IMG/VR virus record: IMGVR_UViG_3300037461_000986
Location: 1-64,000 of that record
DNA length: 64,000 bases
Direction: 5' to 3' (one strand)
Origin: a virus
This document shows positions 4,477 to 64,000 of this stretch, in pieces. Below the pieces are notes generated by a model that was not told where the DNA came from, did not search any database, and saw only the letters and a list, made by a program, of their open reading frames with translations. The position numbers and the translations under genes are program-made. How positions within the stretch are numbered: the stretch's first letter is position 1; each line of letters starts with the position of its first letter.

Positions 4477-4477
4477 G

Positions 4478-6804: not shown

Positions 6805-6808
6805 AGGG

Positions 6809-8161: not shown

Positions 8162-8164
8162 CGT

Positions 8165-30500: not shown

Positions 30501-33500
30501 GGCCCAAACAGGTGCCCGCCGCCGTCCATCACGATGAGGTCATCGGCCGGATCGATCGCCACGATGAACACGGAATCCATGCGGACCTGCGCACAGACCA
30601 AGTAGAGCCCAGGAACCAGCGTGAACTTGGGCTCAGGGTAGACGCCGGGATACACTTGCACGACCCAGGGATTCGCGGGCGTCACGCCGCTCGCCTTCGC
30701 CTCGGCGCAGGCCGCCGCGATAGAGCCCACGCCCAGAGCGTAGTCGCACTGGCTGCCGACCTGGCCCACCGTGCGGAAGTTCGCGATGCTCGGGATATGC
30801 CAGTGGTTGGTCGCCCGGACGTTCGTCGTCAGCTGCGTGTTGTCCGCCGCGGTCAGGTGCTTGTAGTCGCCCGCGTTCAAGCCGTCGAGCGCGTTGTGCG
30901 TCAGCAGCGAGCCCGTGCGCGGCGTGATGTTGCGCCCCAGCCAGGTGACGTAGTTCAGCCCGCCCGGCTCCTTGCGCACGCGCCCCTTGACCGCGTTCGC
31001 GTAGAGGTCGTTCGTTTGAAAGATGACCGTGCCCAGCGCGGACCACTCCTGCGCCGGCAGCGCCCCCGGGATGAGCGCGTTCATCTCGGTCGCGGCGCCG
31101 TTCCGCGCGTCCTCCAGCGTGGCGTAGGCCGCCTGCCCCTGCACCGCAAAGAACTTGTAGGCCGCGTCGTTCGTCGCAAAGACGTGCGCCAGCACGAAGC
31201 CGCCGTCGGGCACCTCGGTCTGCTGCCACGCGCCCCCGGTCAGCTCGTTCCACGCGAGCCGCCCCGTGCCGGTGGTCAGCACGGCGTAGCCCGCGTTGAG
31301 CGCCCGGCGCCAGACCCCGGTGAGGCCGTCCCGGTAGTAGATGGGCAGGCCCGTCGTCGCCGCGACCGGGGCGGCAAAGTGCGTGAGGTCCTCATCCACC
31401 ACCATCGACGACTCGAGGCCGAACTGCGCGTGCGCGGCCGACGCGCCGGACTCGTCGGCCTGGAACGTCACGAGGTTCCCGCCCAGCGTCAGGTACATCC
31501 CGAACCGCCAGTGCATGGTCTCGTGGGTCATCGAGTCCATGGTGATGCCGTGCCGCTCGTTGGCGAAGTAGATCTGCTGCTTGTTAGTCGCGTCCCAGTA
31601 CACCCACGCGCAGAGCGCATACTCGCGGAACAGCTGGCCGTAGACCACCGTGCTCGGGTTCGTCGCCACCGCGAGCGCGCCGGTCGCGTCGAAGTAAATG
31701 CCGTGAATGCCCTCGGTGTCCGGGATGTCCACGGTCAGCGCGGTCGTCTTCGTGAACGTCTGGCCCTTCACCCAAAAGTGGTAGCTCGAGAACGGCGGCG
31801 AGTTCGGCCGGATCGTAAAGCGGCGGTTGGCGTTGTCGAAGCTAATCACCGAGTACAGGAACTGGTCCGCAAACGGAAAGCCGGTCGGCTCCAGGGTGTC
31901 GGTCTCGCGCAGCCGGCTGTGCGCCTGCATCTCGTCGATGGCGGTCTGGAACCGCGTGGCGAGCAGGCCCGAGACGGCGTTGCTGTACTCCTCGATGTTC
32001 GCGGGCTCATAGGTAGCGTCATAATCGTACTCCACGACCGACGACGCTGTGGCCGCGTTCGCGATGGCGCGCGTGCCGATCTCGGAGAACAGCGCGGTGT
32101 TGCCGTCCGCGAGCCAGAGCTGCGTCGTGCAGGCATCGATGACCCAGTTATTCCACGATTCAAAGATCTGGTAGGTGCCCTGCTGGATCGCCAGGCAGGT
32201 GCCGCAATCCTTGAAGCGCGCGGCGGTGCCACCTCCGTAGATGCCCGTTGACAGCACGCTGCCCTCCTGCACGAAAACGCCGTACAGGCAGTCCCGGAAG
32301 AGCACGTCGTGGATGCTCATGAAACGGCCTGAACCTTCGAGGCCATACCACATGCCCACGATATGCGAACGCGCGATCCCGGTCGTGGCCCCACGATTTG
32401 AATAGATGCCGTTGCCCATATAGATGCCACCGTCATCCGCGAACAGACAGCATCCGGAAATAGCTGTATTACCCGAGCCAACAAATCCGAGGTCTCGGAG
32501 ATCGACGTAGCATCGGTCCAGATACATGGTGGCTTTTTCGGTCGCGTTGAGCAGCGAGACTAAGCCCTCGAACGAAACGTTCTGGCAGGTGACGCGCTCG
32601 CCGAGGTAACGATCCATCAGCCATATCTGCGGCGATGCCTTGTTCTCTCGCTCTATGCGGAAGTTCTGGATCAGGACGTTGGCAATCGAGCTATCCTGCA
32701 CCTCGATGTAGTCGTCGACGTAAGCAATCGGCACGCCCGGAGCGGCCACAGTTGCCGGGCGAATGATGGTCATGTCCACGATGTCGAAGCGCGTGGCGCC
32801 CGACATATCTGGCAGGTCCGTAGACCAGAGCCGCGTCGCGGTGTTGCTCAGGATCGGGTAGTAGCTCGCGTTGCCCGCGACCTTGATGTAGCGCCCCTGA
32901 TATTCGTTCGGCGTCCACGTCGCGCCGCTCACGTCCACGTAGGCGTGATAGTCCCACGCGGTGCTCGTATTCTGGTACGCGGTCGGCGTGAGCGTCGCCA
33001 CGACCGTCGTGGGCGCGCCGATGATCTCGATGGTGCCCGCCCCGGTAAAGCGCTTGATCTGGAGGTGGCCCACGTTGTCCGCCGAGAGCACCGTCCCGCG
33101 CGCGTACACGCGCACGGTCACGAGCGGGAGCACCTCGCCGTAGTGCGTGCGCAAGAACGCGAAGGTCTTCTTCGCCGTGCCCCACGAGAGCCCATCCGCC
33201 GCGTCGCTGCCGACGTCGCCGTCCACGTAGAAGGTCTCGTCCGCCTTGATGGTGAGCGCGGCCAGCTCGTCGATGGCGGTCTGATAGCGCACCGCCGTGA
33301 GCTTCGACGCGTCGTTGCTGTACTCGTCCTGGAGGATCGGCAGGTAGTCCGCGTCGGAGTAGCACAGGCGCAGCTGAACCCGACTCTGAAGGCGCGCGGC
33401 GGAGAAGTCCGCGAACGAGCCCACGTCGTTGTCCGAGAACACGAACTCGTGGTCCACGGCCCAGCCGCGGATCTCAAACTCGGCCTGGCGCACGAGGTCG

Positions 33501-36030: not shown

Positions 36031-39000
36031 CTACTCCGTGATGCGTACTTTGGTGCTGCCGGCGGTCGCGCGCACGGCGTCGATCCAAACGTACTGCCCG
36101 GCCCCGGGCGTCTCGCCGAACAGCCCGAAGGCGCCCGGCAAAATGTGATTCGTATCGACCGCGGTGGCGACGCCCGCGTGCGCGCCGCTCATGGTCAGGG
36201 TGATGGTGCTGCCGGTCGCGGCCAGCTCAAGCGTGACGACCGCGCTCGCCGTGTAGGTCACGGCCTCGGTGGTCAGCACGGAGACCTGCTGCACGCCCGC
36301 GCCGTCGCGGTAGTAACGCGCGATGACCAGGTTGGCCGTGGCGGCCCCCGTACAATGCAGATAGCCCGCATAGCCGTGCGCCAGGCCTAGGCCCGCGAAC
36401 GCCCACTGGAGGCGCGTGAACAGGCCCACCTTGCCGCCCGACGGGGCCTTGACCTCCGCCAGCACGGCGCAGTCCCGCAGGTAGGGATAGGCGATCCAGC
36501 GCTCCCAGCCGACCTGGTCACAGCGCGCCTGATTCGACGAGATGTTCCAGCCGTTGCCGGTCTGGATGATGACGTCCCAATTGCTGCCGAGGTTGGCGTC
36601 GTCCCCGCGCGTGAACGTGTCGCTGTAACGGAAGGTGCCGCGCGCCGAGACCTGCCCCGATGTCGGGTCGCGGTCGCCGATGAGCAGCGCCCCCTGCGGA
36701 AAGGGCGCCTTGGTGTAGCGCGCCTTCCAGAGGCGGTCCATCTCGAGCGTCTGCGGCTCGGCCCACCAGCCGCCGCCGTGCAGGATGACGCTCGCGGGCG
36801 CGATCCAGGTGGCGGGCGTCATGCGCGAGGCCATGATCTCCCAGCCCTCGGCCCAGCCGTTGCGCACGACCAGCCCGCTGCCGATGCCCGCGTGATTCCA
36901 GATCTCGATCTGGATCGGCGTGTCGAACCGGCTTAGCGCGGTGTCGCGGATGTACCCGCCCCAGTAGCAGGGCACGTCTATGCTGTCCATATCCTCGCCT
37001 TGAACGCGCCACAGCCGCAGCACCGGCTCGGGCGTACTAACCGCAGTGCCGCGCACGTACTCGCGCTGGGCGCTCGAGGAGTTGACCGCCCACAACTCAA
37101 AATGGCTGCCCTCGTCACCGCCGATGGTGGCCAGCTTGACGTCGCTAGTCATCGAGATGAACGGCGCGGCCGGCAGCCAGTCCAGTTGCAGCCGGAACCA
37201 GCGCGGGTCGAGCGCGTCCGCCCAGGTCGCCGTCTCGACCGCGCGGGTCGTGCCCGCGGGGCTCCAGCTCGACGGCCACAGCGTATCGACCTGCACCATC
37301 GGAGCATCGACGAGCATGCCCTGCGCTTGCCGATAACCCCGCACGTATAACCGCAACTCGTCCTCGGTGTAGTCCGGACGCGCCATGGCAAGGTTGACGG
37401 CCGCATGGTCACGCCACCACCACTGCGGTGGGTGCATGTAATAAGTACGCACGCGACGCGTCGTAATAATGCCTGCACCGCTGTCGCCCGGCGCGATGTT
37501 GAGGCGTGCGTACATAGCGGACTGCGTGGCCGGCGCTACAGTATCCGCGCGCACGCTCCAACTCATGTTCGCTTTGTCCCACGCGCCGACATCAATATGG
37601 CTGTTTAGCGTCACATAGCCGTAGTTGTAATCGGCCGGCCGCCCCATCTCGTCATCGGCCACGTAGTGCGCGTAAAAGCCGCGCATATTATTTCTATCGG
37701 TTTCATCCGTCCCATCCGACAGCCGCTCGAGCCCGCCGAACAGCATGTGTACGTATTTGCCCAACGTTGAGTCATAGGTGCGCACGCCGCGCCAGTAGCG
37801 GAACGGACGAATCCACTCCTCGTCCCCGGCGTAGTCTTCGGGGTCGCCGTCATCGGACAAACCCGCCTGGAGCACGTGGTTCTCGACCGCATCGAAACCC
37901 GCGCCGTTCCAATGGATGCTCCAGGTCGAGTGATACACGTCCCCGCTGCCGACGTGCTCGCCGCCATAGAACCAGACCGTATCCACGCCGTCGTAGACCA
38001 CCGCGCAGTGCATAATCGAAGGCGGCTTGCCCGGTTCCGTGTCATCGAACGCGCCGGGGTCCACGTCGTACTCGTCCAGGGATCCATCGCTGGGATCGAA
38101 CACGCGCACGCGCAGGCCCAGCTCGCCGTCATACGTCCCGCCGACGAGTACGATCATGCCGTCCAGGTCGCCGCCCGAGCAGAAGGCGGAGCCCATGCCG
38201 TAGTCGGCATCGCCCAGCAGATCGGAGCCCACTTCGGTCAAGGTCTCGGCCGTGCAGTTCGCCTTGTGCACCTTGGGCGTGTCCGCCGCCGCACCCCGAC
38301 CGCCAAAGATATAGAGGTTGCCATTCGCATGATCGAGGCAAGCACCCGCGTCCTCGAGTGAATCTGTATGAGTCGTAAGAGGAGTTGGCGTCCAAACCCC
38401 AACACTGAGTGTGTACTTCACAAATACCGCACTCGTCGGAACATCTTTATCGCCCAAACCCACGAGATAAATTACGCTCGTCGGAGTCGACTTACCAAGA
38501 CGCCATTGCTTATGTAATGAAAACTGAGTCCAAGATGCACCCTCGAAAAGAAATACAGGGTCGCTCACTAAATCGCACGAATACACACGAAGTTCACTAG
38601 CTCCAGTCTCACCTTCCGCACGCGCCGCCAGCACGACGCTAGTGGTTGCTCCATGTATAAATACGATATCGGCGCCACCCTCTTCATCATACCGATCTGG
38701 CTCCGGCAACTCCATGGTCACGTCGATGCTCGCGCGCACCGGCCGACCCGTACTGAGCATGTGCTTCTCCGCGGACGTGCTCGCCGCGAGGATCGCCCTC
38801 GAGCGGCTCCAATACTGCGGCCGATAACCGTCAGCGGTAATTGTTGACCACTCCTCGAACTCGGAGTTGGGCACCTGGTTGTCGCCCACCTCGTGCTCGA
38901 TGAGCACCGCCGCCTTGCGCTCCGTGAGCCCGCCCTGCGCCACGAGGGCCATGGCGATGATGTGATCGAAGTTGTAGTCGGAGGCGGACTTGTAGGTCTC

Positions 39001-40053
39001 CAAGTCCGACGTGACGACCTGGCCCGACACCTTGTTGTGCTCGCCGACCATCGACACGCAAGGGATGCCGCCGTTCTCGGTCTGGCTCAGCGTCGAGAGG
39101 TACGAATGCCAGTGCGGCCGCCAGCGCGACCGGAAGTAGTTCACCCACAGGTCCGGGTTCGGCCCCTCGTGCACGCGCCGCGCTTGCACCGCGCGCAGCA
39201 GGCGCCAGATCGTCCAGTCCGCCCAGAGCTTCTCATAATCATCTTCACCCAGATTGCGGAAGCACCGGTCACGCGACACGTAGCGCGCGCCGTCACCCGC
39301 CGTGGCGTGCTGGTCGAGCGCCCACGCAATCGGACGCGGGTCGCCGCCGTTGTACCGCCATGCCTCCATCGCCGTTGCCTCGAGGCAGCAGGTGATGGGC
39401 GCGTCGCCCTTGCTCTCGCCCGCCGTCGGAACGAACTCGTCCCAATACCAGGGCCAGACGCGATTGAGGTTGATGCCCGTATCGACGCCGCTCGGATGCG
39501 GGCCGAGCAGGTTGATGTTGCGCTGGCCAAGGTAGTAGCCGTCCGGGTTGCAGCACGGCATGAAGACGATGTTGAACTGGTTCCGCAACGGCGCGAAGTC
39601 GTCGTGCGTCATCAGCAACTCGAACGCCTTGAGCGTGCCGAGTACGCCGTCCGGCTCGTTGCCATGGATCAGCGTATCAACTAGGAAATACTCGGGCGCA
39701 TCGATCATATAGGTGAGCAGCTCGAGCGGGCGGCCGTCCTGCGATAGGCCATCCCCGCAGGCGATACGCTGAAAGCCGCTGACGCCCGCCAGCGCCGCCT
39801 CGAGGGTATCAAGCTCATCAGTATAAACGTGCGTCTGCTCGCCAACGCGGTCGTAGCAACCGATCTCATTGGAATACCGCACGAATCCCTGGGATTCCGA
39901 GAAGCGGTGATAGATGGGAATGTTGCCGACGCTGGCCAGAATGCGGTCTGCCTGCACGCGCGGGGTGTTCGGCCCCACGGGCCTGCCCGAGATGGGGCAC
40001 CACGCATCGGAGGCGCGCGAAAAGGCCATTTGCTCAAACGTGAGCCGCTTCAT
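36031..40053 (-). CDS. M14 zinc-carboxypeptidase domain fused to a Kelch-like propeller and a ConA-like C-terminal domain (1340 aa)
   Basis: The start was re-set to ATG 40053 (MKRLTFEQ...), which overlaps the upstream stop as ATGA. M14 motifs appear in order: LIHGNEPDG (HxxE, 39655-39666), VFMPCCNPDGY, GINLNRVW, ALDQHAT, VGEHN. Four hhhhGG blade motifs follow (LYIFGGRG, MIVLVGGTYDG, VWFYGGEHVG, HMLFGGLERL). Confidence 0.8.
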   Translation of the reverse strand: MKRLTFEQMAFSRASDAWCPISGRPVGPNTPRVQADRILASVGNIPIYHRFSESQGFVRYSNEIGCYDRVGEQTHVYTDELDTLEAALAGVSGFQRIACGDGLSQDGRPLELLTYMIDAPEYFLVDTLIHGNEPDGVLGTLKAFELLMTHDDFAPLRNQFNIVFMPCCNPDGYYLGQRNINLLGPHPSGVDTGINLNRVWPWYWDEFVPTAGESKGDAPITCCLEATAMEAWRYNGGDPRPIAWALDQHATAGDGARYVSRDRCFRNLGEDDYEKLWADWTIWRLLRAVQARRVHEGPNPDLWVNYFRSRWRPHWHSYLSTLSQTENGGIPCVSMVGEHNKVSGQVVTSDLETYKSASDYNFDHIIAMALVAQGGLTERKAAVLIEHEVGDNQVPNSEFEEWSTITADGYRPQYWSRSRAILAASTSAEKHMLSTGRPVRASIDVTMELPEPDRYDEEGGADIVFIHGATTSVVLAARAEGETGASELRVYSCDLVSDPVFLFEGASWTQFSLHKQWRLGKSTPTSVIYLVGLGDKDVPTSAVFVKYTLSVGVWTPTPLTTHTDSLEDAGACLDHANGNLYIFGGRGAAADTPKVHKANCTAETLTEVGSDLLGDADYGMGSAFCSGGDLDGMIVLVGGTYDGELGLRVRVFDPSDGSLDEYDVDPGAFDDTEPGKPPSIMHCAVVYDGVDTVWFYGGEHVGSGDVYHSTWSIHWNGAGFDAVENHVLQAGLSDDGDPEDYAGDEEWIRPFRYWRGVRTYDSTLGKYVHMLFGGLERLSDGTDETDRNNMRGFYAHYVADDEMGRPADYNYGYVTLNSHIDVGAWDKANMSWSVRADTVAPATQSAMYARLNIAPGDSGAGIITTRRVRTYYMHPPQWWWRDHAAVNLAMARPDYTEDELRLYVRGYRQAQGMLVDAPMVQVDTLWPSSWSPAGTTRAVETATWADALDPRWFRLQLDWLPAAPFISMTSDVKLATIGGDEGSHFELWAVNSSSAQREYVRGTAVSTPEPVLRLWRVQGEDMDSIDVPCYWGGYIRDTALSRFDTPIQIEIWNHAGIGSGLVVRNGWAEGWEIMASRMTPATWIAPASVILHGGGWWAEPQTLEMDRLWKARYTKAPFPQGALLIGDRDPTSGQVSARGTFRYSDTFTRGDDANLGSNWDVIIQTGNGWNISSNQARCDQVGWERWIAYPYLRDCAVLAEVKAPSGGKVGLFTRLQWAFAGLGLAHGYAGYLHCTGAATANLVIARYYRDGAGVQQVSVLTTEAVTYTASAVVTLELAATGSTITLTMSGAHAGVATAVDTNHILPGAFGLFGETPGAGQYVWIDAVRATAGSTKVRITE

Positions 40054-41414
40054 AGTGGATTCGCCCCTCGCGCAAGGTCGCGCATGCGCGCGGAAAGCGC
40101 GCGCGCTGTAGCTCGGTTGATGCGGTTGGTGCCGTAGGCGACCCGCGAGATCATGCACTCGGCGGGCGAGCCGTCCGTCGCGCTATTGCCGATGATGAGC
40201 GTGCCGGGCGTGGGCGTCTGCGGATACCACGTCGCCGGATTGAACGCGCCGTCTAGGCGCTCGCCGTTGACCCAGAGCGTGGCCTGCGTATCGGTATTCA
40301 CCTCCTCCCAGGTCGCCACGATGCCCAGCGCCGCGAAGTCGTCCCACGAGGTCGGCCCATCGAGGAACGCGAAGTTCGTCCCGGACGTGTCCCCGAGCGT
40401 GACCACCACGCGGTCGTAGGTGTCGCTCATGGACACGCGCAGGCGCCATGTATCGCAATCGAGGTTGAGCATGCCCAGGAAGCGGTAGTTCGCGTTGCCC
40501 GCGTTGTCCGTGTGCCCGCGATCCGTCGAGCGGTCCGGCAGCACCACGCTCATCGCCAGCCACCCGCTCGGGCGCAGGCAGACCTCGGCCACCGAGGACC
40601 GCACGGCGTACTCCAGGCGCGAGTCGGCGCCGAAGCCCGCGCGCGTGATGCGCTCCGAGCCGGTGTACTGATTGAAGAACCCCGGGAACGCGAACTCCCA
40701 CTTGCCGTTATCGGCCACCACGGCGATCGAGCCGTAGCCGGTGGTCGAGGCGTTGTTCGGCACTAGGATGCTGAGCGCCCACCAACCGTCGTACCCGAGG
40801 CTGCGATAGACCGGGGTCGAGGTGGCGCGCGTGCCGGCCGTCGCGTTCCAGCCGAGCGTCACGATGCCGGCCGGGTCCTCGGTGCCGCTCTCCCCGCGCA
40901 CGAGCACCTGGAACTGCCGCAGGTAGGTCGCACTGCGCGCCTGGGACTTCTCCACGACGCAGTCATTGACCGCGTCCAGCGAGCTGTCGAGGTACACCCG
41001 GCGGCGGCTCGTGGCGATGTCGGGATCGCGTGCGATGCTCGGGAAGTCCGCGCCATCCTCGCTGAGCTGGCTCGCGTCCGTCGGCGCCACCACCGCGTAG
41101 TTGTACTTCGAGGTCCCATAGCCAACGTGATAGTTGGCGTTGGTCATGTAGAACGCACCGACGCTGCCGAGGCAGCGGTCCTTGCCCGCGGCCGTGTCGA
41201 TGCCGTCGGTCATGAACGTCCACTGCTTGTGGCTGTTCATGATGAGCCACTTGGCGGTGCTCGCCCCGCTCGCCGTCTCGTAGACCTCCGCGAGCATGGG
41301 GCCGCCCGCCTTCGCCGGCCCGACCGCCTGCTGCGCGCGGAGCGCGTCCCAGTAGAAGCGCGGGCGCAGCCGCAGGATCGCGCTCGCCCCGGCGCCTACC
41401 AGGCCGCCCATCAT
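40050..41414 (-). CDS. LamG-like lectin-domain protein
   Basis: The start was re-set to ATG 41414 (MMGGLVGAG...), an ATGA overlap with the upstream stop. The C-terminus TLWVNGERLDGAFNP....GTLIIGNSATDGSPAECMISRVAYG is a LamG signature. Confidence 0.65.
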   Translation of the reverse strand: MMGGLVGAGASAILRLRPRFYWDALRAQQAVGPAKAGGPMLAEVYETASGASTAKWLIMNSHKQWTFMTDGIDTAAGKDRCLGSVGAFYMTNANYHVGYGTSKYNYAVVAPTDASQLSEDGADFPSIARDPDIATSRRRVYLDSSLDAVNDCVVEKSQARSATYLRQFQVLVRGESGTEDPAGIVTLGWNATAGTRATSTPVYRSLGYDGWWALSILVPNNASTTGYGSIAVVADNGKWEFAFPGFFNQYTGSERITRAGFGADSRLEYAVRSSVAEVCLRPSGWLAMSVVLPDRSTDRGHTDNAGNANYRFLGMLNLDCDTWRLRVSMSDTYDRVVVTLGDTSGTNFAFLDGPTSWDDFAALGIVATWEEVNTDTQATLWVNGERLDGAFNPATWYPQTPTPGTLIIGNSATDGSPAECMISRVAYGTNRINRATARALSARMRDLARGANPL

Positions 41415-44311
41415 CGCAGCACCCCGAGGCTCATCGGCAGCACGCGCACGTAGAAGGTGGCCTCGTTCGTCGCGTGGTTGTTCCGCACATGCAGGAACGC
41501 GCGCCCGCGATTGGCGGGCGTGCTGTCCTCGTTGCGGAAGGGCACGTTCTCGAACTCGACCACCGAGCAGACCAGCGAGTCGGCCGCCCACGACGAGCCG
41601 TCCACGAGCACCTCATCTAGGTCCATGTTGCCCGCCGAGCGCGCGAGGATGCGCACCAGCTCGTAGCGGTTCGCGTCCTCGAAGACGACCGCCGCCTCGT
41701 CCGTGTCAAACATGTCCTCGTCGTTCACCTCTACGTAGTCCTGCGCCGCGGGCAGGATCGCGGAGAGGTAGCTCTGCCGCGCGACGCCGCTTGCCTGCCA
41801 CATCACGTCGCGCCCGTATCCTTGCGACGTGCGGTAGACCCGCAGCCGGAAGTCGGTCGAGTAGTTGTCCGGGTCGGCGACCACGGCCCAGACCTGCACG
41901 AGTTGCAGGATGCCCGCGTCGCCGGTCGTCAGGATCTCCAGCATCTCGTCGCCGCCCGCGCTCAGCGCCGCGGTGGCGTAGTCCGCCTGCGCCTCGGCAA
42001 TCGAGTCGGCCAGCTCCCACGTCCCCGGCGTGCCGGCCCCGGTGCAGCGATACTTGATGCCCTCGTCGTCGAGCACCTCGTGCCCGGCCGCGTAGGTGCC
42101 GGCCGTCGGCGCGCCGGTCGCGCCCAGCGGCGTGCAGCCCACCGCGTCGAACAGCTTCTTCGCCGCGACTACCTCATCCGTGGTCGTGGTGACCGCGTTG
42201 GCGATGGCGACCCCGGCCGCGCTCAAGGTCGGGTAGACGTCGGCAGTGAGGTCGGGCTTGAGCTTGAGCTTGCCGGTCGCGAACTGGAGCCCGCCGTCGG
42301 AGGGGAGCGCGACGCGCGGCTTGCCGAGGCCGTCGTCCTCGATGCCGTCGCCGTATGGTGATGGAATGGCCGGAGGAGAAGCAGACGGCTGGAAACCGCC
42401 TGCAGTAACCGCAATGTCAAACGTCTGACTCGGGACCACGCCCGTAACGAATGCCGTGCCGTAAAGCGTGCCCGCCGTCTCGAGCTCGAAGCCGAACGGT
42501 TCCGCCGACCGATAGGTATCCGCGTCGCTCAGGTCGACGACCATGGTATAGACCGGCTCGAGCCGAGCGACGTCCTGATACAGGATGACCGTGAGCGTGC
42601 CCGTGCCCGTGGTAGGCGTGACCGCCAACATGTAGCCCACGCCTTCGGTGACATATAGGTTCGCATCGACCGCTGTGAAGTCCGTGTCGTCTACGAGATC
42701 AATAGCGGTCTCTTCAAAGCTAACGAGGTGCACGGCACCACGAGCAGCAAGCTCGTCAAGCGCGTTTTGATAATTCCTCGCCGAAAGTCCCGAGACCGCG
42801 TTGTCATATTCGTTCGGCACTTCGATGTCGAAGTCCAGGTTTGTATAGACAACGTCCAAGCCAGCACGACCTTTGAGCGTCTTGGCGGCAAGCTCTGCAA
42901 ACGTTCCTTCGTCGTCAGTTCCGAAAAGGATCTCCGTACCGACATCCCAGCCCAAGAGGCTGACCGTGTCCAATAGTACAATCGCACCCTGGCCATGGAT
43001 GCCCGTGGTGCACGTATCAAACCGCGTCTGCGGAGCTACGCCGCCCGGATGAACCAATTCGAGAATGCTGTCATAAAAGTCTATGCCGACATCGCAGTCG
43101 GCGAAGTAGACCCCCTCTTGAGAGAGAATCGTACCGCCGTGCGTCATATATACGCCAAAAAGCTGTCGACTAAAGGTGGTGCGGTAAAGCGTTGCGTAGG
43201 CGTGATCGTATGAATTATACCCCCATCCTGTGTCATCCAGAGAATGAAAGGCACAATTCCAAAAACTAGAAGAGCTGTACCCGTCTAGGACGTAACCATA
43301 GTTTGATAAGTTGTAATAGCAACCGTAGTGATTAATACCAACGATATTGGAGCTGATCAACGAAGTGGCTGATATGCGGGTCAGGTCCACTTTATAACAA
43401 TTAAGAAAGTTCGCACTGTCAGTCCACGAAGCCGCCTCGTCCAGCCAAAGGTTCTCGATGCTCACTGGCACGCCGCACTGCCTTGCACCAAAATAAATCG
43501 AAGGCCATTCGCCGAAATCATACTTGACACCAGGGTCGGACTCGAGCTCTTCCAGCAGCTCTGGTGCTGCATAGATTGTTCCGACAGGAGTTCCCGCTAG
43601 TCCCGTATGCAGCGCCATGTAAAGCGTAGTCTCGTCATTCGAGTACACCGGATATTGCGCAGAGCCAGGAGCTAAACCAACGAAGTGCCGCCGCCATTGT
43701 TCAGGCGTCCATGCCTTTGCCGGGTCTTGAATCCAGATGCGAGAACCGCGCGTTGCAATATCATTTTGATAAGCTGTCGCAGTGAATGTTTCAACCGCAG
43801 TGAGGACGCCAACGAGGGAAATGCGTCCAGTGCCGTAGAACGCCTTCAAATAGAGATGCCCGTCGGCGTTGCGCGCGCGAATGTCATTACGAAAGTTGAT
43901 GGTCAACACCGCGTTGATTTCGCGCGGCAGGGCATCGGTCGCTCCGGGGATCAAAAAGCCAAACGTCTTCTTCGCCGTGCCCCAGGTGAGGCCATCGTTG
44001 CCGTCGTCGCCAGCCGTGCCGTCGACATAGTAGGTTGTGTCGACGTCAATGGCCGAGCCACCCATCGTCTGCTCGACCCAATCGCCGTTGGTGATGCCGC
44101 CAGAGAGCGTATAGACCTTGTTCTCGGACAGTACCTTGACCCACATGCCCTCCTTGCGGCGGTCATCAGTGATGGCATCGCGCTCGAGGGAATCCGCCAC
44201 CGCGCGGAATCCGCCTCGCCCGTAGGTGTCATCGTGGGTCGGGTATGGATCGGACGTGAGGGACGGGGCGATGAAGCCGCCGACGCGAACGCTGCCGGGT
44301 ATTGTTGGCAT
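41411..44311 (-). CDS. tail fibre / tailspike with a beta-helix module paralogous to modules of the giant protein
   Basis: 966 aa. Residues 94-523 (YYVDGTAGDDGNDGLTWGTAKKTFGFL...EYDNAVSGLSARNYQNALDELAA) are collinear with aa 90-515 and 523-958 of the 3407-aa protein. Confidence 0.75.
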   Translation of the reverse strand: MPTIPGSVRVGGFIAPSLTSDPYPTHDDTYGRGGFRAVADSLERDAITDDRRKEGMWVKVLSENKVYTLSGGITNGDWVEQTMGGSAIDVDTTYYVDGTAGDDGNDGLTWGTAKKTFGFLIPGATDALPREINAVLTINFRNDIRARNADGHLYLKAFYGTGRISLVGVLTAVETFTATAYQNDIATRGSRIWIQDPAKAWTPEQWRRHFVGLAPGSAQYPVYSNDETTLYMALHTGLAGTPVGTIYAAPELLEELESDPGVKYDFGEWPSIYFGARQCGVPVSIENLWLDEAASWTDSANFLNCYKVDLTRISATSLISSNIVGINHYGCYYNLSNYGYVLDGYSSSSFWNCAFHSLDDTGWGYNSYDHAYATLYRTTFSRQLFGVYMTHGGTILSQEGVYFADCDVGIDFYDSILELVHPGGVAPQTRFDTCTTGIHGQGAIVLLDTVSLLGWDVGTEILFGTDDEGTFAELAAKTLKGRAGLDVVYTNLDFDIEVPNEYDNAVSGLSARNYQNALDELAARGAVHLVSFEETAIDLVDDTDFTAVDANLYVTEGVGYMLAVTPTTGTGTLTVILYQDVARLEPVYTMVVDLSDADTYRSAEPFGFELETAGTLYGTAFVTGVVPSQTFDIAVTAGGFQPSASPPAIPSPYGDGIEDDGLGKPRVALPSDGGLQFATGKLKLKPDLTADVYPTLSAAGVAIANAVTTTTDEVVAAKKLFDAVGCTPLGATGAPTAGTYAAGHEVLDDEGIKYRCTGAGTPGTWELADSIAEAQADYATAALSAGGDEMLEILTTGDAGILQLVQVWAVVADPDNYSTDFRLRVYRTSQGYGRDVMWQASGVARQSYLSAILPAAQDYVEVNDEDMFDTDEAAVVFEDANRYELVRILARSAGNMDLDEVLVDGSSWAADSLVCSVVEFENVPFRNEDSTPANRGRAFLHVRNNHATNEATFYVRVLPMSLGVLR

Positions 44312-52082: not shown

Positions 52083-55000
52083 TTAGTGTGGCACATAATG
52101 GCCGCGCAGCGCGGAAATCATAAAGGCAACCTGGTCGGCGGCCACCTCCCAGTTCTTCCCGATCTCAGCGGCGCTGCTAAGCCGCTCGACTGCTGTCGAC
52201 AGGAACTCGGTATTAGTTCGCGTATCGTACTCGTCGATGGACGCAGGCGTTTGATAGTCCTTGGCCTTCAGCGGCTTGCCCAGATTCTTGATCAATGCCT
52301 TTGCTTCTTCGCCATACACTTTCGCATCGTACCGATCCATGAACGCACCCGGTAACGCGTATTCGTCCTCGGTGCCTCCCTTGCCGTAAAGGGAAATGTC
52401 GCCCTTGAGCAGGTTATCGACATCACGCGCAAGACGGTTGCGCACAATGCGGGCGGCCACGCCGTTCTTTCCAACGCGATCGACGAGGTGCGCGCCCTCG
52501 TGCTTCAACACACGGCGGCCCGCGACCGCCGCTCGCCCGCTTTGCCCTGATAGCGTCCGCTCGTAGTTATCTGGCATGGAGATAAAGGCGCCCTCGCCGT
52601 CCTCTCCGAATAATACCAGCCGGCGCTTCATGAATCCTCGCCGCCATTGGAGGGATCGATAGAACCGCGGCGCGCCCATTGCGGCAACCGCCTGAACTAC
52701 AGGATCGGAACAATGCTGCAGGGCGAAGTCGAGCGCCTTGCGGGCCGTCTCCCCGCGCTGCATCTCGAGTGACCCCTTGATCTTGTCAGACACCGTGGCA
52801 CGGTCGGCGGCCGTCTGGGCCGCTACCTGTGCCGGCGTCATCTTGGCCGTGCGGTCGACCAGCACGTCGCTAGGCTTGGCCTTGGCCGCGCCCTCCTTCA
52901 CGATCTTCGTAATGATCTGGCCCTTTTCCGCCGTCTTCAGCGCGCGGCCGAGCCGCTCCTCTTCTTTGCGGATGCGCCCCTGGACTTCATCGCGAACGAT
53001 TGCCAACCGCTTGTCGACCTGCTCATGCACGGGCACGCCAGGGATCAAATTCCGTTGGTTCCAATCGATGCGCGCCTTGGGATACGCCTGGCGCACGTCG
53101 GTGAAGAGTTCGACGCCAAGCTTCGCGAGCTTCTCTGCATTGCCCGTCTGGATCCACGCATCGGCAACGCGCGTGAATACATCCGTCGGCACCTTGCCAA
53201 GCACGGCGCCGTCGATGCGCAGGAACACCGCATTGCCCTCGTGGTCATTGACCACCCAGTCGCGCTTGCCAGCCAAGTTCGAGGCGACCTCGGCTTCGAG
53301 GGCCGAGACGAGAAACCGCCGGCTCGCTGGAAATCGTGGGTTTACGAGCTGCGTTGCGGTGACGTTGACGACATGGTCCGACGGCTGGGGCCGGATGACG
53401 CGCAGCGAGGTTTGGAACGTGACCGCCTTGTCGCTCAACGCGGCCCACTCGGACCGCTTCACCGGCACGCCGTTGGCATCAACGGTGGCACTCGACCAGA
53501 CGGCGTGCTCTTGTTTCCACTGCGCCTTGGTAATGATGGCCCCGTCGGGCCGCGCAGCATAGAGTTGCGCCCCGATGGGTGCGTCCTTAAGCGCGCCGGT
53601 CAAACGCGGTCCGGCCGGTTCCTCCAAGGGCGACGGCCCAGCATTCGGCTTTGTCCCAGTCTGCGGCTGCGCGCCGGTCGTGCGCGGCTTGGCCAAGGGA
53701 CTACGCGCGGGCAGACCACTCGTTCCCATGGTCACGCGCGCGGTTGCCGGGTTGCTCACCGCGTCCACGGTTTTACCAATCCGCACAGCGCCCGCGAGCT
53801 CGGCGATGCGCAGCAACTCCTCAGCCGCTACCTGGGCCTCGGCGGGCGTCGTGGCTAGGCGCACAGCCATGGCGGCATCGGCCATCGCCTTGGTCATGCG
53901 CCCAGTGAAGCGCGCCCAGATCGTCTCGCCCTTGGTGTCCACCATCTGCACGAGACGCGACCGACCTGCCGAGGCGGGATTTGCCACGAGCGCACCAAGT
54001 GCCGCGCGACTACTCGATTGCGCGGTGAGGTGCATGACCGCATGACCAGGAGTTGCAAACAGGCCCGGGTTCGTCGCGAGTTCGTCTATTTGCGCGCGCG
54101 CCCAGGGGGCAGCCTCATCGAAGCCGCGCGTCATGGGATCAGAGCCCATAGTGCGCACGCCATACACCTCGGCCGAGGCACCTATAGCGCGCCGCGTTCC
54201 AGCATCAGGCGCCTTCCACCTGGGCAGGCCGTAGTCGTCGACCGGAGTGAGGGTGCCGGTGACTACGGGCTTACTCGGCGTCGGCATCTTGAACTGCTCC
54301 AACGCGCCGAAGGAAGTCCAATCGCCATTCTCGGATGGAGCCGGGCCGACCGCGCGCATCGCACTGCCTTTCGGCACTTGCGCGACATCCATGCGCGGCA
54401 CCAACGTCGTGCGGCAGTTGTGGTGGTAGGGCGGCGCGCCGACATTGGCACCATTGAAGCCTGCCCCGGCGACGAATTGTTGCGCGCGACCGCGGTCGTC
54501 CACATTGCCCGAGCCCTCGCGCTCGAAGCGCCCGAGTAGGGTCTTGCCCGCGTGGATCTCCATGGCGCCTTGATCGTTGCGCGTCTGTCGTAGGAAGGGC
54601 GCGACCTTGCCGATGTCCTCCGGGGTCGTCACCGCCGCCGCACGATTCGCAAGATCTAACGCGCCGGCAATGGGAATCACTTGCCCGTCCATCAGGCGGC
54701 AGTTGTGCACCACCACCGTCTCGGCCACGTAGGTCGGGTCATCCTGCACCTCGAGGTTGTAGACGTCGTACATGCCATCGGCGAACACGTCGACCTCGGT
54801 GACCAGCACGTTCGCGCAGCGCTCGGCGTAGGCGCTGGCAGGCAGCTCGGCCCACGGGTCTGCCTGCTCGCCGCGCCGCCGCAGGTACTCGGTATAGAAC
54901 CACGCGACCTCGCGCGGGGGGCGCGTCGAGCGATGGCGCGTCGAGACGACGTCGCCACTGCACAGGGCGCCCGCCGGCTGCCACCCATGCCGCGTGAGGA

Positions 55001-56201
55001 ACGGGTGCTCCTCGGTGACGTAGAGCTGCCGCCCGGATGAGGTGCGCACGCGCACGATCGAGTGGACCAGCCGCTTGCTGCGCTTGAGGACGGTCCCGAG
55101 AAAGCCGAAGCCCGTGACCACCTTGTCGCCCGGATGGATGAGTTCGATGGCGCGCTCGCCCGCCTCGGTCAGGATCTTGGTATTCCCTAAAAAGCAGATG
55201 TCGGTGGTGCGTTCGTCGAGCATCGCCACGACCTCCGCGTACTCGATGCCGCCCTCGGCGTAGGTACTCAGCTCGGCGTGGCTGCGCGCGCGCGCCAGGC
55301 CGTTCGCGGCCACGGTGTGCGCGTAGCCCTTGCCCATGCCCTGCCACAGATCCGGGAGTTGTTTACGGAGATCGTCGGCGACCTCGGCCCGTCCGAGTCC
55401 CTGCGCGAAGCCGGCCGCGACGATCTTGCGCGCGCGCAGGGTGAGCGCGTCGTTGCGCTGGCCGTCCATGCCGCGCACGAACCAGCTCTGCTGCGCCACG
55501 AGGCGTTCGACAGCGGCGACCTGCGGCGCGCTGATGTCGATCTCGACCGCGCCCAGAAAGCGGTCCTTGACGCTGCCGCGCGTGCCCTGCGCCATACCCT
55601 TAAAGTGCGGATCGGCTGCGTCCATCCACGCCCGGTCCAGGCCCCGCTGCTCGGTGCGCAGAGCGGCGGCCGCGCGCTTGAGCTCGTCCGCGGAGTTCTC
55701 TTGTGTAACGTCTTGGAGGCGGTCCACGAACCGGTCTACGGCGGGCAGGCCGGCCGCGGCATCGGCGGCCGCGAGGTCGGCGGCCGCGCGCCGGGTCAGG
55801 CCCTTGAAGTCGTCCGGCCGAAACGGGTCGAGCTTTGCTTTGAGGATCACGCCGGTCGGCGCAAGGATCTCCGGGCTCGGCGTCGTCGAGAAGCGATCGG
55901 TGGCGGCCCACAGGATGCGGCCGTCCGCGCGCACGCGCGCCCCCTGGTAGAGCGTGACCGCCTTCGCCCCCTGCGCGCCCAAGTCCGCGACGCATGCCAG
56001 GGCATCCCGATGGCCCGAGACCGGCAGGCGCCAGCGCTGCGCGCGCTCGAGCCGCACGGCCCACAGCGGAAGCGTCCCCTTGGCAATCGCCGCGCTCCCT
56101 ACCCCTCCGTACGCCGCCGCCGCCGCCGCGTCGCGCCCGAGATCGACTAGCGGCCAGAGCAGGGCGTAATCGCCCGCCGGATGTCGGAAGAGGGGGGTCA
56201 C
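52083..56201 (-). CDS. MuF / SPP1 gp7-type head morphogenesis protein, polyvalent form (1372 aa) with an intein and a C-terminal HExxH module
   Basis: The start was set to GTG 56201, which overlaps the upstream TGA as GTGA. The MuF core is ..ARSHAELSTYAEGGIEYAEVVAMLDERTTDI[intein]CRLMDGQV...APPYHHNCRTTLVP. A ~720-aa extension follows, ending with ..RRVLKHEGAHLVD.. (HEGAH at 52488-52502). Confidence 0.8.
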   Translation of the reverse strand: MTPLFRHPAGDYALLWPLVDLGRDAAAAAAYGGVGSAAIAKGTLPLWAVRLERAQRWRLPVSGHRDALACVADLGAQGAKAVTLYQGARVRADGRILWAATDRFSTTPSPEILAPTGVILKAKLDPFRPDDFKGLTRRAAADLAAADAAAGLPAVDRFVDRLQDVTQENSADELKRAAAALRTEQRGLDRAWMDAADPHFKGMAQGTRGSVKDRFLGAVEIDISAPQVAAVERLVAQQSWFVRGMDGQRNDALTLRARKIVAAGFAQGLGRAEVADDLRKQLPDLWQGMGKGYAHTVAANGLARARSHAELSTYAEGGIEYAEVVAMLDERTTDICFLGNTKILTEAGERAIELIHPGDKVVTGFGFLGTVLKRSKRLVHSIVRVRTSSGRQLYVTEEHPFLTRHGWQPAGALCSGDVVSTRHRSTRPPREVAWFYTEYLRRRGEQADPWAELPASAYAERCANVLVTEVDVFADGMYDVYNLEVQDDPTYVAETVVVHNCRLMDGQVIPIAGALDLANRAAAVTTPEDIGKVAPFLRQTRNDQGAMEIHAGKTLLGRFEREGSGNVDDRGRAQQFVAGAGFNGANVGAPPYHHNCRTTLVPRMDVAQVPKGSAMRAVGPAPSENGDWTSFGALEQFKMPTPSKPVVTGTLTPVDDYGLPRWKAPDAGTRRAIGASAEVYGVRTMGSDPMTRGFDEAAPWARAQIDELATNPGLFATPGHAVMHLTAQSSSRAALGALVANPASAGRSRLVQMVDTKGETIWARFTGRMTKAMADAAMAVRLATTPAEAQVAAEELLRIAELAGAVRIGKTVDAVSNPATARVTMGTSGLPARSPLAKPRTTGAQPQTGTKPNAGPSPLEEPAGPRLTGALKDAPIGAQLYAARPDGAIITKAQWKQEHAVWSSATVDANGVPVKRSEWAALSDKAVTFQTSLRVIRPQPSDHVVNVTATQLVNPRFPASRRFLVSALEAEVASNLAGKRDWVVNDHEGNAVFLRIDGAVLGKVPTDVFTRVADAWIQTGNAEKLAKLGVELFTDVRQAYPKARIDWNQRNLIPGVPVHEQVDKRLAIVRDEVQGRIRKEEERLGRALKTAEKGQIITKIVKEGAAKAKPSDVLVDRTAKMTPAQVAAQTAADRATVSDKIKGSLEMQRGETARKALDFALQHCSDPVVQAVAAMGAPRFYRSLQWRRGFMKRRLVLFGEDGEGAFISMPDNYERTLSGQSGRAAVAGRRVLKHEGAHLVDRVGKNGVAARIVRNRLARDVDNLLKGDISLYGKGGTEDEYALPGAFMDRYDAKVYGEEAKALIKNLGKPLKAKDYQTPASIDEYDTRTNTEFLSTAVERLSSAAEIGKNWEVAADQVAFMISALRGHYVPH
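54702..55196 (-). other. mini-intein (165 aa, Hint domain, no endonuclease) inside the MuF domain
   Basis: It begins CFLGNTKILTEAG (block A). It has VTEEHPF (block B, TxxH). It ends DVYNLEVQDDPTYVAETVVVHN, followed by a +1 Cys. Removing it restores the contiguous sequence DERTTDI-CRLMDGQV. Confidence 0.8.
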
Positions 56202-56491
56202 TTGTCCCCCACTAGGCGCGGCACGCCGGTATGAATAATGAACCACCGTCCGCAGCGCCGGCAGGTCCCAGCCCCGCAATGGATCGGCGTGAGCAGGTTC
56301 GGCGCGTCGGCATACCCGGTCGCCACCTGGGCCGTGAACTGGAGCGCGGCGCACGCCGGACAGCGCAGGATGGCCACGGGGCCGCGCTGTACGATGTCGC
56401 CGGACTCTAACGCGCCCGCCGCATAGGCCGCGCCCAGCGACGTGACGTCCGCCCGCAGGCGATAGCGGGCAATGCGCAGGGCGTCAGGCAT
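56198..56491 (-). CDS. small zinc-ribbon protein (Com-like arrangement)
   Basis: 97 aa with CPAC...x24...CGAGTCRRCG. Confidence 0.55.
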   Translation of the reverse strand: MPDALRIARYRLRADVTSLGAAYAAGALESGDIVQRGPVAILRCPACAALQFTAQVATGYADAPNLLTPIHCGAGTCRRCGRWFIIHTGVPRLVGDK

Positions 56492-61524: not shown

Positions 61525-61931
61525 AGCGTATCCTCCAGCGGCCCGCCGTCCGCCGTGAGCAATCCGGCCTCGATGGCGCGCGTCCGCCAGCGCGCATAGT
61601 AGCATGGCAGGCACGTCGCGTCTGCCGCCATGTTGCGCGTGCGATGGTGCGCACATGCCTCGCGCGTGGCGCCCACGCGTGGCCCGCGCGCGCCCGTAGA
61701 CAAGGGGGTCATGTGCCGCAGGTCGTAGGCCGTCACGCCGACCACCACCCGGGGGAAGTACGGGTCGACCACCACGAACGCGGCCGACAGGTTCGGGTGC
61801 GCGGACAGGTCCGGGTCCGCGATGGCGTCGAGCTCGGTGCCACCCGGCAGCTCGACCGTCGCGCCGAGCGCGAGGTACCACTTGTCGAGGATGACCGCGG
61901 TCACGGGCGCTATGGTTACTTGGTTCATCAT
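61521..61931 (-). CDS. hypothetical protein
   Basis: The start was re-set to ATG 61931 (MMNQVTIAPV...), preceded by GGAGGT. It lies directly after the terminase stop. Confidence 0.5.
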   Translation of the reverse strand: MMNQVTIAPVTAVILDKWYLALGATVELPGGTELDAIADPDLSAHPNLSAAFVVVDPYFPRVVVGVTAYDLRHMTPLSTGARGPRVGATREACAHHRTRNMAADATCLPCYYARWRTRAIEAGLLTADGGPLEDTL

Positions 61932-61944
61932 GTGCGCACCTCCG

Positions 61945-63549
61945 CTATAGCAGATAGCCGCCGCTCTCCGCGCCCACATTGAGACGGATCTCATCTTCAC
62001 CGCCGGTCGCCCAGGCGTCAAGGAAGTACCGCCTTGCGGCGTCGAGCGCCTGGCTGAAGGTATCCACTAGGTCGTCGTGCTTGCCGAACGGGAAGTCCAG
62101 CAACTCGCTCACGAGGTCGCCGCGGCCGGGCATCCAGGCCGGGTCGTCACTGTTGAGCGTTCTCGAAAAGATGACCTCGCCGCGCTCCATGAGGGGCGTC
62201 ACCGCGATGAGGCGCTGCGCCTTGCTTACGCGCGGCTTCGTCACCTCGATGATGCCGGCCAGGGCGGGCTCAATATTGAGCACCCACTCGTCCAGTGAGG
62301 CCTGCCCTACCTTCTCGATGAGCACGCGCAGCGGGTTGTACTTCCGGTGTTCCTTGATGACCTGCTGGGCCATGACGTTTAGCGTCAGGCGCGCGGCCCA
62401 GCTATCGATGACGTACACGCGGCGGGCATCGGCATCTACCGCGATCGTGCAGCTCGCAGAGTAATCCTGGTCGGCGTTGCCCGTCGGCGAGCCCGCCGTG
62501 TCGTAGCTCGTAAAGAACACGAGGTGGCCGCCGGCCAGGCGGTCGGCAAAGATCGGGTCGCGCGCGAGGTCGGAGAACTTGATCCAGCGATCGCGCACGA
62601 TCGCCGAGTCCTCATCGACGGGGTTATTACGGAAGCCCCGGTTGAACTCGATGGACTGGATCTCCTGATAGCGCGCGCGCAGGTTCGCCTCGCTCCACTT
62701 CTCCGGCCACATGGCGCCGAAGGCGTGGTCGATGGCGTAGAAGTAGGTCGCAAACGCAGGGTTGACCATGAGCTGGTGCGAGAGGTCGTCCTTGTGCCAG
62801 AGCGTACAGATGTACCAGATGCGCGAGTCGGGCTCGAGCAAGTTCGTCCAGTCGCTCTTCCATGCCTGCTTGATCTGCTCGCGCAGCGCCGGGAAGGACA
62901 GGGCGTTGCGGCGGTCCACGGCGTCGTCCGCGATGAGCAGGTCCGCACGGCCGCCCGTAGCCGTCGAGGTAATACCGAGCGCCTCGATGCTGGCATCCCT
63001 ATGGAACGCGCTACGCTCGACGATGATCTTGTGCTTCGACCACTCGCCCCGCTCCGCCTGCACGAGGCGCGGAAAGACCTCGCGGATGCGCGGGTTGTAC
63101 TCCAAGTGCTGCACCACCTCGAAGAGCCGCTCCTTCGCGCGGCCATCGCTCGCGCACGCTATCTTGATGCGCAGGTTCGGGTCGCGCCCGAGCTCCCAGA
63201 GCGCGCGCCCAATAATCTGCGACGTCTTGCCGTGGTCGCGCGGCGCGATAATGAGCACGCGGCCGCCCGTATCCATGGCCGTGCTCCACTCATCGTGGAA
63301 CCACTGCTGGGCGAACGGCCGCCCCGTATGCGAGTCCATGAAGCAATACTGCATGAAGGTCGGGAAGTGCTCGCGCGCGCGCCGCCGATGTACCTCTTGC
63401 AGGGCACTGAGCCGCAGGCGTAACTCTTCCGCGCTGGCCTCGGGCGTGCGCATGTTCGCCGGCCCGATCATCTCGTCGAGATAAACGAGGTGCTCCTGCG
63501 GCGGTCGGTAGCGCGCATCAAGATGCCCGATCTGATCGAATGCGTTCAT
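61945..63549 (-). CDS. terL: terminase large subunit
   Basis: 534 aa. Walker A-like IIAPRDHGKTS and Walker B-like DLLIADD. The nuclease half has FFTSYDTAGS and the C-terminal GKHDDLVDTFSQAL typical of terminase large subunits. Confidence 0.9.
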   Translation of the reverse strand: MNAFDQIGHLDARYRPPQEHLVYLDEMIGPANMRTPEASAEELRLRLSALQEVHRRRAREHFPTFMQYCFMDSHTGRPFAQQWFHDEWSTAMDTGGRVLIIAPRDHGKTSQIIGRALWELGRDPNLRIKIACASDGRAKERLFEVVQHLEYNPRIREVFPRLVQAERGEWSKHKIIVERSAFHRDASIEALGITSTATGGRADLLIADDAVDRRNALSFPALREQIKQAWKSDWTNLLEPDSRIWYICTLWHKDDLSHQLMVNPAFATYFYAIDHAFGAMWPEKWSEANLRARYQEIQSIEFNRGFRNNPVDEDSAIVRDRWIKFSDLARDPIFADRLAGGHLVFFTSYDTAGSPTGNADQDYSASCTIAVDADARRVYVIDSWAARLTLNVMAQQVIKEHRKYNPLRVLIEKVGQASLDEWVLNIEPALAGIIEVTKPRVSKAQRLIAVTPLMERGEVIFSRTLNSDDPAWMPGRGDLVSELLDFPFGKHDDLVDTFSQALDAARRYFLDAWATGGEDEIRLNVGAESGGYLL

Positions 63550-63612
63550 CCAGTCCTATGCGTATAAAAAGGGCGGTTTGAAAGTCTCAGCCCGGCGATC
63601 GGGGAGACAAAA

Positions 63613-63649
63613 GTGAATAGCCCGTGAATATTGCATGCGCTTGTGAATA
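63613..63649. repeat. three direct copies of GTGAATA around a GCATGC palindrome
   Basis: GTGAATA occurs at 63613, 63624 and 63643. GCATGC is at 63634-63639. The region is noncoding and lies 65-100 bp upstream of the terL start. Confidence 0.5.
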
Positions 63650-63660
63650 GATTGGCCTCA

Positions 63661-63880
63661 CTAATCCTCATGCTGTCTCACTACTTTCACCTTTGCTCAC
63701 TCTTGTTCAAGTTCGTCCCTAATTGCTCAGGTTTGCTCAAGTTCGTCCCTATTTGCTCAGGTTCGTCCCTGTTCGTCCCTGTTTGCTCAAGATTGCTCAA
63801 GATTGCTCAAGATTGCTCACTCTTGCTTACCCTCGTCCCTAGTTGCTCACCCTCGTCCAGTGTCGCTCACCTTCGTCCAC
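63661..63880. repeat. array of 22 perfectly phased 10-bp units (two interleaved motif classes), noncoding
   Basis: Units start at every xxxx1 coordinate. TTGCTCA-type units: 9 exact (63691, 63721, 63731, 63751, 63781, 63791, 63801, 63811, 63841) and 3 variants (63701, 63821, 63861). TCGTCC-type units: GTTCGTCCCT x4 (63711, 63741, 63761, 63771) and 3 variants (63831, 63851, 63871). Three degenerate units sit at the left end. Confidence 0.9.
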
Positions 63881-63885
63881 TAACC

Positions 63886-64000
63886 TCAGTCGTCCTGCGC
63901 GCGCCGCGCCGCCCCGGCACTTGTATCGCGCGTGCGCGCATGCGGCGGGGTAGTGCCCGTCCGCGCGAACTCCATCAGCTCCTCGTTACTCCAGCCCCGG
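63886..64000 (-). CDS. C-terminal 37 codons of an upstream ORF (function unknown; 5' end beyond the window)
   Basis: My translation is ..RGWSNEELMEFARTGTTPPHARTRDTSAGAARRAQDD*, with mostly GC-rich third positions and a TGA at 63886-63888. It is too short to assign a function. Confidence 0.35.
   Translation of the reverse strand, partial: RGWSNEELMEFARTGTTPPHARTRDTSAGAARRAQDD

Follow-up and report, generated by a model that had tools for sequence, protein, structure and literature searches.

A lineage-specific array of phased ten-base-pair units between a probable small-terminase gene and terL in an uncultured phage

Between a probable small-terminase gene and the large-terminase gene (terL) of an uncultured phage lies an array of 19 head-to-tail 10-bp units, each made of a 7-bp core and a 3-bp spacer, in which cores of two classes alternate irregularly and both the cores and their spacing are under selection. 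None of the examined related phages that share the surrounding genes has the array. Our tentative reading is that it forms a lineage-specific track of about 19–23 direct 7-bp putative protein sites for an oligomer that would wrap the DNA, with the small terminase (TerS) as the likeliest ligand and an accessory packaging site as the likeliest role. Here, 'the window' denotes the whole stretch of viral DNA analysed, 64,000 nucleotides in length, and all coordinates refer to it unless another contig is named.

Structure of the array

The core array occupies 63690..63879 on the minus strand. Read on the gene strand, its units follow the order B' A' B' A B A' A A A A B B A B A A B A' A, where A stands for TGAGCAA, B for GGGACGA and a prime for a one-base variant or hybrid. 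Class A accounts for 12 of the 19 units, including three one-base variants (TGAGCGA, TAAGCAA and TGAACAA), and class B for the other seven, including two TGGACGA hybrids. The two cores differ at four of their seven positions: positions 1, 3, 4 and 6 each take one of two alternative bases, which co-vary and define the classes, while C5 and A7 are invariant and G2 is kept in 18 of the 19 units. Spacer positions 8–10 carry almost no information (about 0–0.2 bits), and an A base precedes all five GGGACGA cores. A degenerate tail of four TGAR-type units (TGAAAG, GTGAGAC, ATGAGGA and GTGAGGC; 63650..63689, minus strand) keeps the 10-bp period, with its last three units slipped by 1 bp relative to the core array. 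An earlier note on this DNA had described a tandem decamer array with two motif classes at 63661–63880, and the sequence is as described; of the 22 units that it read without a phase slip, 19 stand in strict register, whereas the leftmost three are degenerate and displaced by 1 bp, and one further degenerate unit can be added.

At lags of 10, 20 and 30 the array matches itself at 0.58–0.63, against a maximum of 0.43 in 2000 shuffles; Tandem Repeats Finder reports the same three periods, and chance alone predicts 0.00 occurrences of a three-unit TTGCTCA pattern in the window. Two assemblies read continuously through the array. It is AT-richer than its surroundings, as had been noted (GC 0.505 vs 0.66 for the locus), and its gene strand is 69% purine. 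The same note had called the stretch noncoding with no open reading frame in any frame: we find no coding support, but a 158-aa ORF with a TTG start, which spans the array in antisense only, and two ORFs of 37–39 aa do cross it. The array was rejected as coding sequence, class A units placing TGA in all three gene-strand frames.

Two of the checks proposed with the original description gave the following. In a wedge-model calculation with approximate parameters, the most curved 42–63-bp windows of the genome fall inside the array; high predicted curvature is a consequence of the periodicity, and thus not independent evidence. In a search of the rest of the 73 kb examined and of the relative loci, neither motif clustered again and no further periodic array came up.

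Selection on cores and spacing

The units depart from their class consensus at 5 of 133 core positions and 33 of 57 spacer positions (Fisher p = 1.8e-16), a contrast that persists once duplicate units are removed (p = 1.3e-13), and no indel is found across the 19 units although the spacers have fully diverged. As tandem duplication copies core and spacer equally, intact cores and the lack of indels point to selection on the cores and on their spacing. A conserved 7-bp core, a free 3-bp spacer, strict phase and an absence of indels together bear out the binding-site signature that had been read into the repeats. Slippage also operates, and recently, as shown by three identical consecutive units (TGAGCAATCT x3), alongside which sub-periods of 20 and 30 bp are present. 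The idea that the array was seeded from the 3' end of the upstream gene (...CAGGACGACTGAGG) was not retained, since words of the GGGACG type abound in a genome this rich in GC.

Genomic setting

The array sits in a noncoding insertion of 336 bp (63550..63885, minus strand; GC 0.49) between the stop of the terS-like gene and the start of terL, the longest noncoding gap in the 73 kb examined. Its placement between an upstream stop and terL was correctly given beforehand: the stop is at 63886–63888, and terL, which encodes a 534-aa large terminase subunit (phrog_38, E 2e-80; Terminase_6C), runs at 61945..63549 on the minus strand. An AGGA ribosome-binding site lies within the gap at 63554–63557. 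Between the array and terL there are also three (C/A)TATTCAC boxes (63613..63650, minus strand) with start-to-start spacings of 19 and 11 bp, which could be a second set of binding sites or a promoter element; two of the three genome-wide copies of the 8-mer CTATTCAC fall here, with one copy elsewhere in the 73 kb. No sigma-70-type promoter or intrinsic terminator was detected in the gap, and no motif is common to the array and other AT-rich intergenic gaps. A mobile element was rejected, there being no convincing terminal inverted repeats or target duplication around the array.

The wider context comes from Logan contig SRR12684589_65950 (hereafter L001), which encodes a TerL of exactly this sequence, matches the window without a difference over 12 kb and continues 9 kb past the window end. 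The 73 kb examined thus comprise window positions 1–64000 and L001 positions 1–9073, out of a genome of about 102 kb. An identical copy of the 215-aa protein encoded upstream of the array is recorded on a 102,469-bp JGI contig, from which it follows that the source genome is larger than the window. All genes called over the 73 kb lie on one strand (minus in the window). On the 5' side of the 215-aa gene are genes for a TET-associated glycosyltransferase, a ParB_N-domain protein, a NikA-like ribbon-helix-helix (RHH) protein and a RuvC-like resolvase. Downstream of terL runs a single co-directional structural block, from the portal gene through the baseplate J genes, which contains genes for the portal, a Mu-F-like head protein with an intein, a 3407-aa protein, a tape-measure-like protein and baseplate J. 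TerL falls in a broad group that includes T7-like terminases, and its nearest cultured relatives are only 24–27% identical; identities this low place the phage in a deeply uncultured lineage.

Several features of these flanks deserve record in their own right. The slot between the ParB_N and terS-like genes holds the TET-associated glycosyltransferase here (PF20691, E 1.7e-43; L001 7633–8544), and radical-SAM and QueC genes (L059 1431–4413) or radical-SAM/SPASM genes (L060 749–3620) in two relatives, which suggests a swappable DNA-hypermodification cassette beside the packaging genes. Within the structural block, the 1423-aa Mu-F-like head protein (52083–56354, minus strand) carries Hint_2 and Intein_splicing domains. 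The 3407-aa ORF (24575–34798, minus strand), whose sole match is a pectate-lyase-like domain near its C-terminus, and a 1375-aa ORF (36031–40158, minus strand) with Peptidase_M14 and Kelch-like matches are giant virion or tail proteins. An island of low GC at 43001–44000 (0.526 vs about 0.68) lies inside a 966-aa ORF (41411–44311, minus strand) that has no family match and a low GC3; it could be either a segment acquired recently or a gene called in error.

A probable small terminase upstream

The gene immediately 5' of the array, whose 3' end occupies 63886..64000 on the minus strand and whose full length is found at L001 8541–9188, encodes the 215-aa protein. An AlphaFold model built from 60 homologues (mean pLDDT 86) predicts a disordered basic N-terminus, a three-helix helix-turn-helix (HTH) with a short hairpin at residues 48–83, a long antiparallel helical hairpin (94–137 and 145–162) and C-terminal helices, and the C-terminal end bears the conserved motif W..EEL.EFA..G. 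The protein itself has no Pfam or PHROG match; its homologues match HTH_17, MerR, HTH_23 and HTH_38, five of them match DUF1804, and one weakly matches the terS family phrog_4102 (E = 0.015). PDB sequence profiles gave no significant match, and a Foldseek search of the model against PDB returned only E >= 0.65, with TerS chains at E of about 2–4.

Homologues of the gene overlap or abut terL in five related loci (L058, L060, L087, L089 and L117), usually after a ParB_N gene, and the gene has the layout expected of terS: it lies directly before terL, and its predicted product has a DNA-binding domain at the N-terminus, a helical, putatively oligomerising core and a tail at the C-terminus. On synteny and architecture, and with no significant homology match, it is a probable small terminase. 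The array, for which the earlier note had suggested a pac or small-terminase recognition region, is directly 3' of this probable terS and directly 5' of terL.

Distribution among relatives and in databases

Homologues of the 215-aa protein, 36–73% identical, were found at about ten loci (L058–L061, L087/L088/L090, L089, L091, L117, L118 and L119, where L087, L088 and L090 are three copies of one locus). At most of these loci the gene overlaps or abuts terL; the junction is an overlap in L058 and L060, a gap of about 5–36 bp in L087, L117 and L089, and a gap of 98 bp in L059. Seventeen further IMG/VR loci, picked by a TerL 54–65% identical to the present one, have coding sequence right up to terL. 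Neither the array nor any chain of at least three units occurs in the roughly ten terS-homologue loci, their fetched flanks included, or in the 17 TerL-picked loci. Absence from otherwise collinear relatives is largely what the earlier note had said would speak against its proposal, and the array is missing from every collinear relative examined.

A metagenome scan with the TerS profile recovered four loci, none with the array, and blastn of 61900–64000 against 50,697 phage records matched only a short terL segment. When IMG/VR and 185,579 GTDB species genomes were scanned for exact or degenerate patterns, only short homogeneous decamer repeats of 3–8 units came up, none of them mixing the A and B classes. 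Absence from relatives and scans alike indicates a lineage-specific gain. A search with 11-bp spacing turned up a separate entity, the dimer TTGGGGACGAATTGGGGACGAA, in at least a dozen unrelated contigs of IMG/VR with GC of 0.38–0.57 (L026–L057; for example L036 190–208, L043 8–26 and L047 13750–13768), often within about 800 bp of the contig or locus end; it is a conserved element unrelated to the decamer array.

The predicted recognition helix of the 215-aa protein (T77, A78, R80, Y81 and E83) is conserved in the relatives that lack the array; in one homologue (P0002) it is nearly identical, yet no array is present within its contig. With the helix kept where the array is missing, the array cannot be the conserved pac site of the TerS family. 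The terS–terL junction is, moreover, an insertion hot spot, judging from the small genes inserted there in two terS-homologue loci and the inteins in terL at several loci. The TerL inteins of L059 (5684–8470) and L117 (886–3738) carry LAGLIDADG domains, the TerL of the present phage has none, and the terL of L087 appears to be interrupted after the Walker A motif (around 3900).

A proposed mechanism

Units in a single orientation at a period of 10.0 bp would suit a protein assembly with rotational or screw symmetry, such as a ring or filament, rather than a dimeric regulator. The claim that all sites share one face of the helix holds only locally; as the period falls short of the helical repeat of about 10.5 bp per turn, successive sites drift by about 17 degrees per unit, from which we infer a left-handed superhelical wrap as a closer fit than sites on a flat face. 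Rings of TerS have adjacent HTH motifs about one turn of B-DNA apart and a circumference of about 300 A, with a proposed wrap of about 100 bp (PMC4737164). The neighbouring gene encodes a probable protein of this kind, making TerS the most economical ligand and packaging initiation the most economical function.

Under the reading that we prefer, the array would have been inserted between the probable small-terminase gene and terL, and an oligomer with identically oriented DNA-binding domains, either a ring or a helical filament, would bind it cooperatively and wrap its DNA in a shallow left-handed superhelix. The likeliest ligand would be a ring of the TerS-like HTH protein encoded next door; with each subunit taking up about 10 bp, some 20 sites could seat two rings or two turns, and the wrapped array might then mark the DNA for packaging initiation beside terL. 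The more specific version, in which the array evolved as a sequence-specific wrapping substrate for the small-terminase ring, with one 7-bp core read per HTH and per turn and about 20 sites seating two rings, is somewhat doubtful. A point against a TerS ligand in either form is that a single HTH would need to recognise both core classes despite their differences at four of seven positions. The identity of the ligand, the wrapping and the packaging role are all things that we infer from this arrangement.

Such an array would be an acquired accessory element for recognition or affinity rather than the ancestral pac of the family. That it is accessory and recently acquired is suggested by its absence in relatives with a conserved recognition helix, and by the general behaviour of pac-type TerS proteins, which bind DNA weakly and non-specifically, the wrapping model itself being without direct support (PMC9611059). 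The same points leave considerable scope for a different ligand or a regulatory platform.

Alternative explanations

The strongest competitor, serious although rather unlikely, is a regulatory platform: a DNA-binding protein of phage or host would coat the array and control how transcription enters terL and the structural operon that follows it in the same direction over more than 60 kb. The coated array could be a roadblock or silencer, or could serve to activate a promoter within the 125 bp that separate it from terL. The insertion breaks the translational coupling of terS and terL found in relatives, it is the largest noncoding gap of 73 kb in which all genes are co-directional, it is AT-richer than the genome, and the array is closely followed by another set of repeats (CTATTCAC x3); regulatory modules are also typically lineage-specific, in keeping with the absence from relatives. 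Against this, the gap yielded neither a sigma-70-like promoter nor an intrinsic terminator, the array shares no motif with the other AT-rich intergenic gaps, about 20 tandem sites far exceed what known phage activators or repressors use, and no gene for a candidate regulator goes specifically with the array. The late-operon activator array offered as one possibility in the earlier note fares no better, no promoter-like or terminator-like site having been found.

Less probable again is a selfish or neutral decanucleotide minisatellite, or the remnant of a mobile insertion, expanded by slippage at an insertion-tolerant junction and devoid of sequence-specific function. Recent slippage is evident in the three consecutive TGAGCAATCT units and in the 20-bp and 30-bp sub-periods, the terS–terL region accumulates inteins and extra small genes in relatives, none of which has the array, and phage and bacterial contigs often contain short homogeneous decamer repeats. 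However, variation is confined mostly to the 3-bp spacer while the cores remain intact (p about 1e-16), 19 units have escaped indels though their spacers are fully diverged, and the two classes are irregularly interspersed, whereas all other arrays found are homogeneous and 3–8 units long. Divergence spread evenly over the unit, as in a neutral minisatellite or VNTR, is not what the deviations in cores and spacers given above show.

A role as partition centromere (of ParR/parC or ParG/omega type) or as iteron origin seems improbable to us; the protein bound would then be of the ribbon-helix-helix, ParB-like or Rep kind, with its gene at another place in the genome of about 102 kb. Tandem direct repeats at one helical turn are a hallmark of type II centromeres, such as R1 parC with its 11-bp units and pSK41 with its 10-bp half-repeats, and the array has tandem direct repeats at about that interval; furthermore, the NikA-like RHH gene (L001 6551–6772) and the ParB_N gene (6853–7596) stand 1.6–2.6 kb upstream. 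The ParB_N gene is, however, also conserved in array-less relatives, the 73 kb examined of the roughly 102-kb genome contain no Walker A motif of the ParA type, about 40 proteins scanned gave no match to ParM, TubZ or Rep families, and the array neither adjoins nor autoregulates any par-like operon. For an origin, the flanks are the wrong ones, being terS-like and terL genes with no rep neighbour, and inspection of the 336 bp by eye revealed no AT-rich unwinding element, DUE-like A/T run or DnaA box.

An RNA-level element in the terS–terL message, in which purine-rich GGGACGA/UGAGCAA repeats act as a sponge for a protein or as a translational leader without structure, would accord with the position of the array on the sense strand between two co-directional genes, its purine content and its TGA triplets in all three frames, but was rejected as highly implausible given that there is no Rfam match, that folding energy is no better than in shuffles on either strand (z = -0.6 sense, +2.3 antisense) and that single-stranded RNA offers no evident reason for a strict 10-nt register.

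Significance

According to a 2022 review, neither the wrapping nor the threading model explains the sequence specificity of small terminases (PMC9611059). A long phased track of conserved direct sites beside a TerS-like gene could settle whether HTHs displayed on a ring read DNA one turn at a time. Should the array prove to be a TerS-ring substrate, it would offer the first naturally occurring DNA for a direct test of the disputed 'nucleosome model' of TerS–DNA recognition, and it would imply that a phage can acquire a strong pac signal de novo through decamer expansion. Were the ligand some other protein, the array would still represent an unusually clean, selected track of sites for a superhelical nucleoprotein complex. 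As a probable recent gain, it could in either case be compared with sister phages that lack it.

Comparison with known systems

The closest known arrangement is the pac region of SPP1 and SF6 (pacL/pacR, with boxes a, b and c, bound by the G1P ring), where direct repeats likewise lie beside the terminase genes. The TerS of these phages carries N-terminal HTHs on a ring at about one turn from each other, with about 100 bp per ring and two rings proposed per pac (PMC4737164). The SPP1 repeats differ in being few, poorly conserved pairs that overlap the terS promoter and 5' end, and that the isolated DNA-binding domain binds non-specifically, whereas the present array comprises about 20 well-conserved cores in perfect register on the 3' side of terS; homology between the 215-aa protein and G1P is not demonstrable.

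The R-sites of lambda cosB, bound by the winged-HTH TerS gpNu1 together with IHF, offer a second parallel in having multiple TerS sites (putative ones, in the present phage) beside the terminase genes. The gpNu1 DNA-binding domain is of the HTH_17/MerR-type general fold class, the same broad class to which the HTH_17 and MerR-type matches of the 215-aa homologues point. In lambda, cosB consists of three non-tandem 16-bp sites and an IHF bend, upstream of Nu1 and next to cosN.

In direct-repeat geometry the array resembles type II plasmid centromeres, namely R1 parC with its ParR protein and pSK41 parC, in which tandem repeats with a period of about 10–11 bp wrap a protein superhelix. These centromere arrays contain or flank the par promoter and adjoin parM and parR, whereas no such genes are linked to the present array.

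T7 has short direct-repeat arrays (SRL/SRR) that flank its terminal repeats, next to the packaging and concatemer junction. The likeness lies in short direct-repeat arrays tied to packaging, and in the present TerL falling, at 24–27% identity, in the broad group that includes T7; the T7 arrays have other units and spacing, and stand at the genome ends rather than between terS and terL. The baseplate and tape-measure-like genes indicate that the present phage, unlike T7, is not a podovirus.

Among uncultured viruses, three high-GC contigs have arrays of the same period with near-identical cores beside packaging genes: five copies of TGGACGAACT with other repeat families between terL and a gpW-like/portal pair (L070, 2250–2620), seven copies of GGGACGAGCC 230 bp after terL and near the contig end (L071, 4455–4525), and four copies of CCTGAGCAA upstream of a portal gene (L020, 14323–14360). 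Unlike the present array, each has a single unit type in 4–7 copies, and the terminases belong to unrelated families. These cases hint that decamer arrays beside packaging genes are a recurrent theme, although their position is likely to reflect ascertainment bias, short viral contigs being enriched for packaging genes.

None of these nearest known systems joins about 20 cores of two classes, a perfect 10-bp register and a position between terS and terL. By its overall design, we rate the array as belonging to the phased iteron tracks that serve oligomeric DNA-binding proteins.
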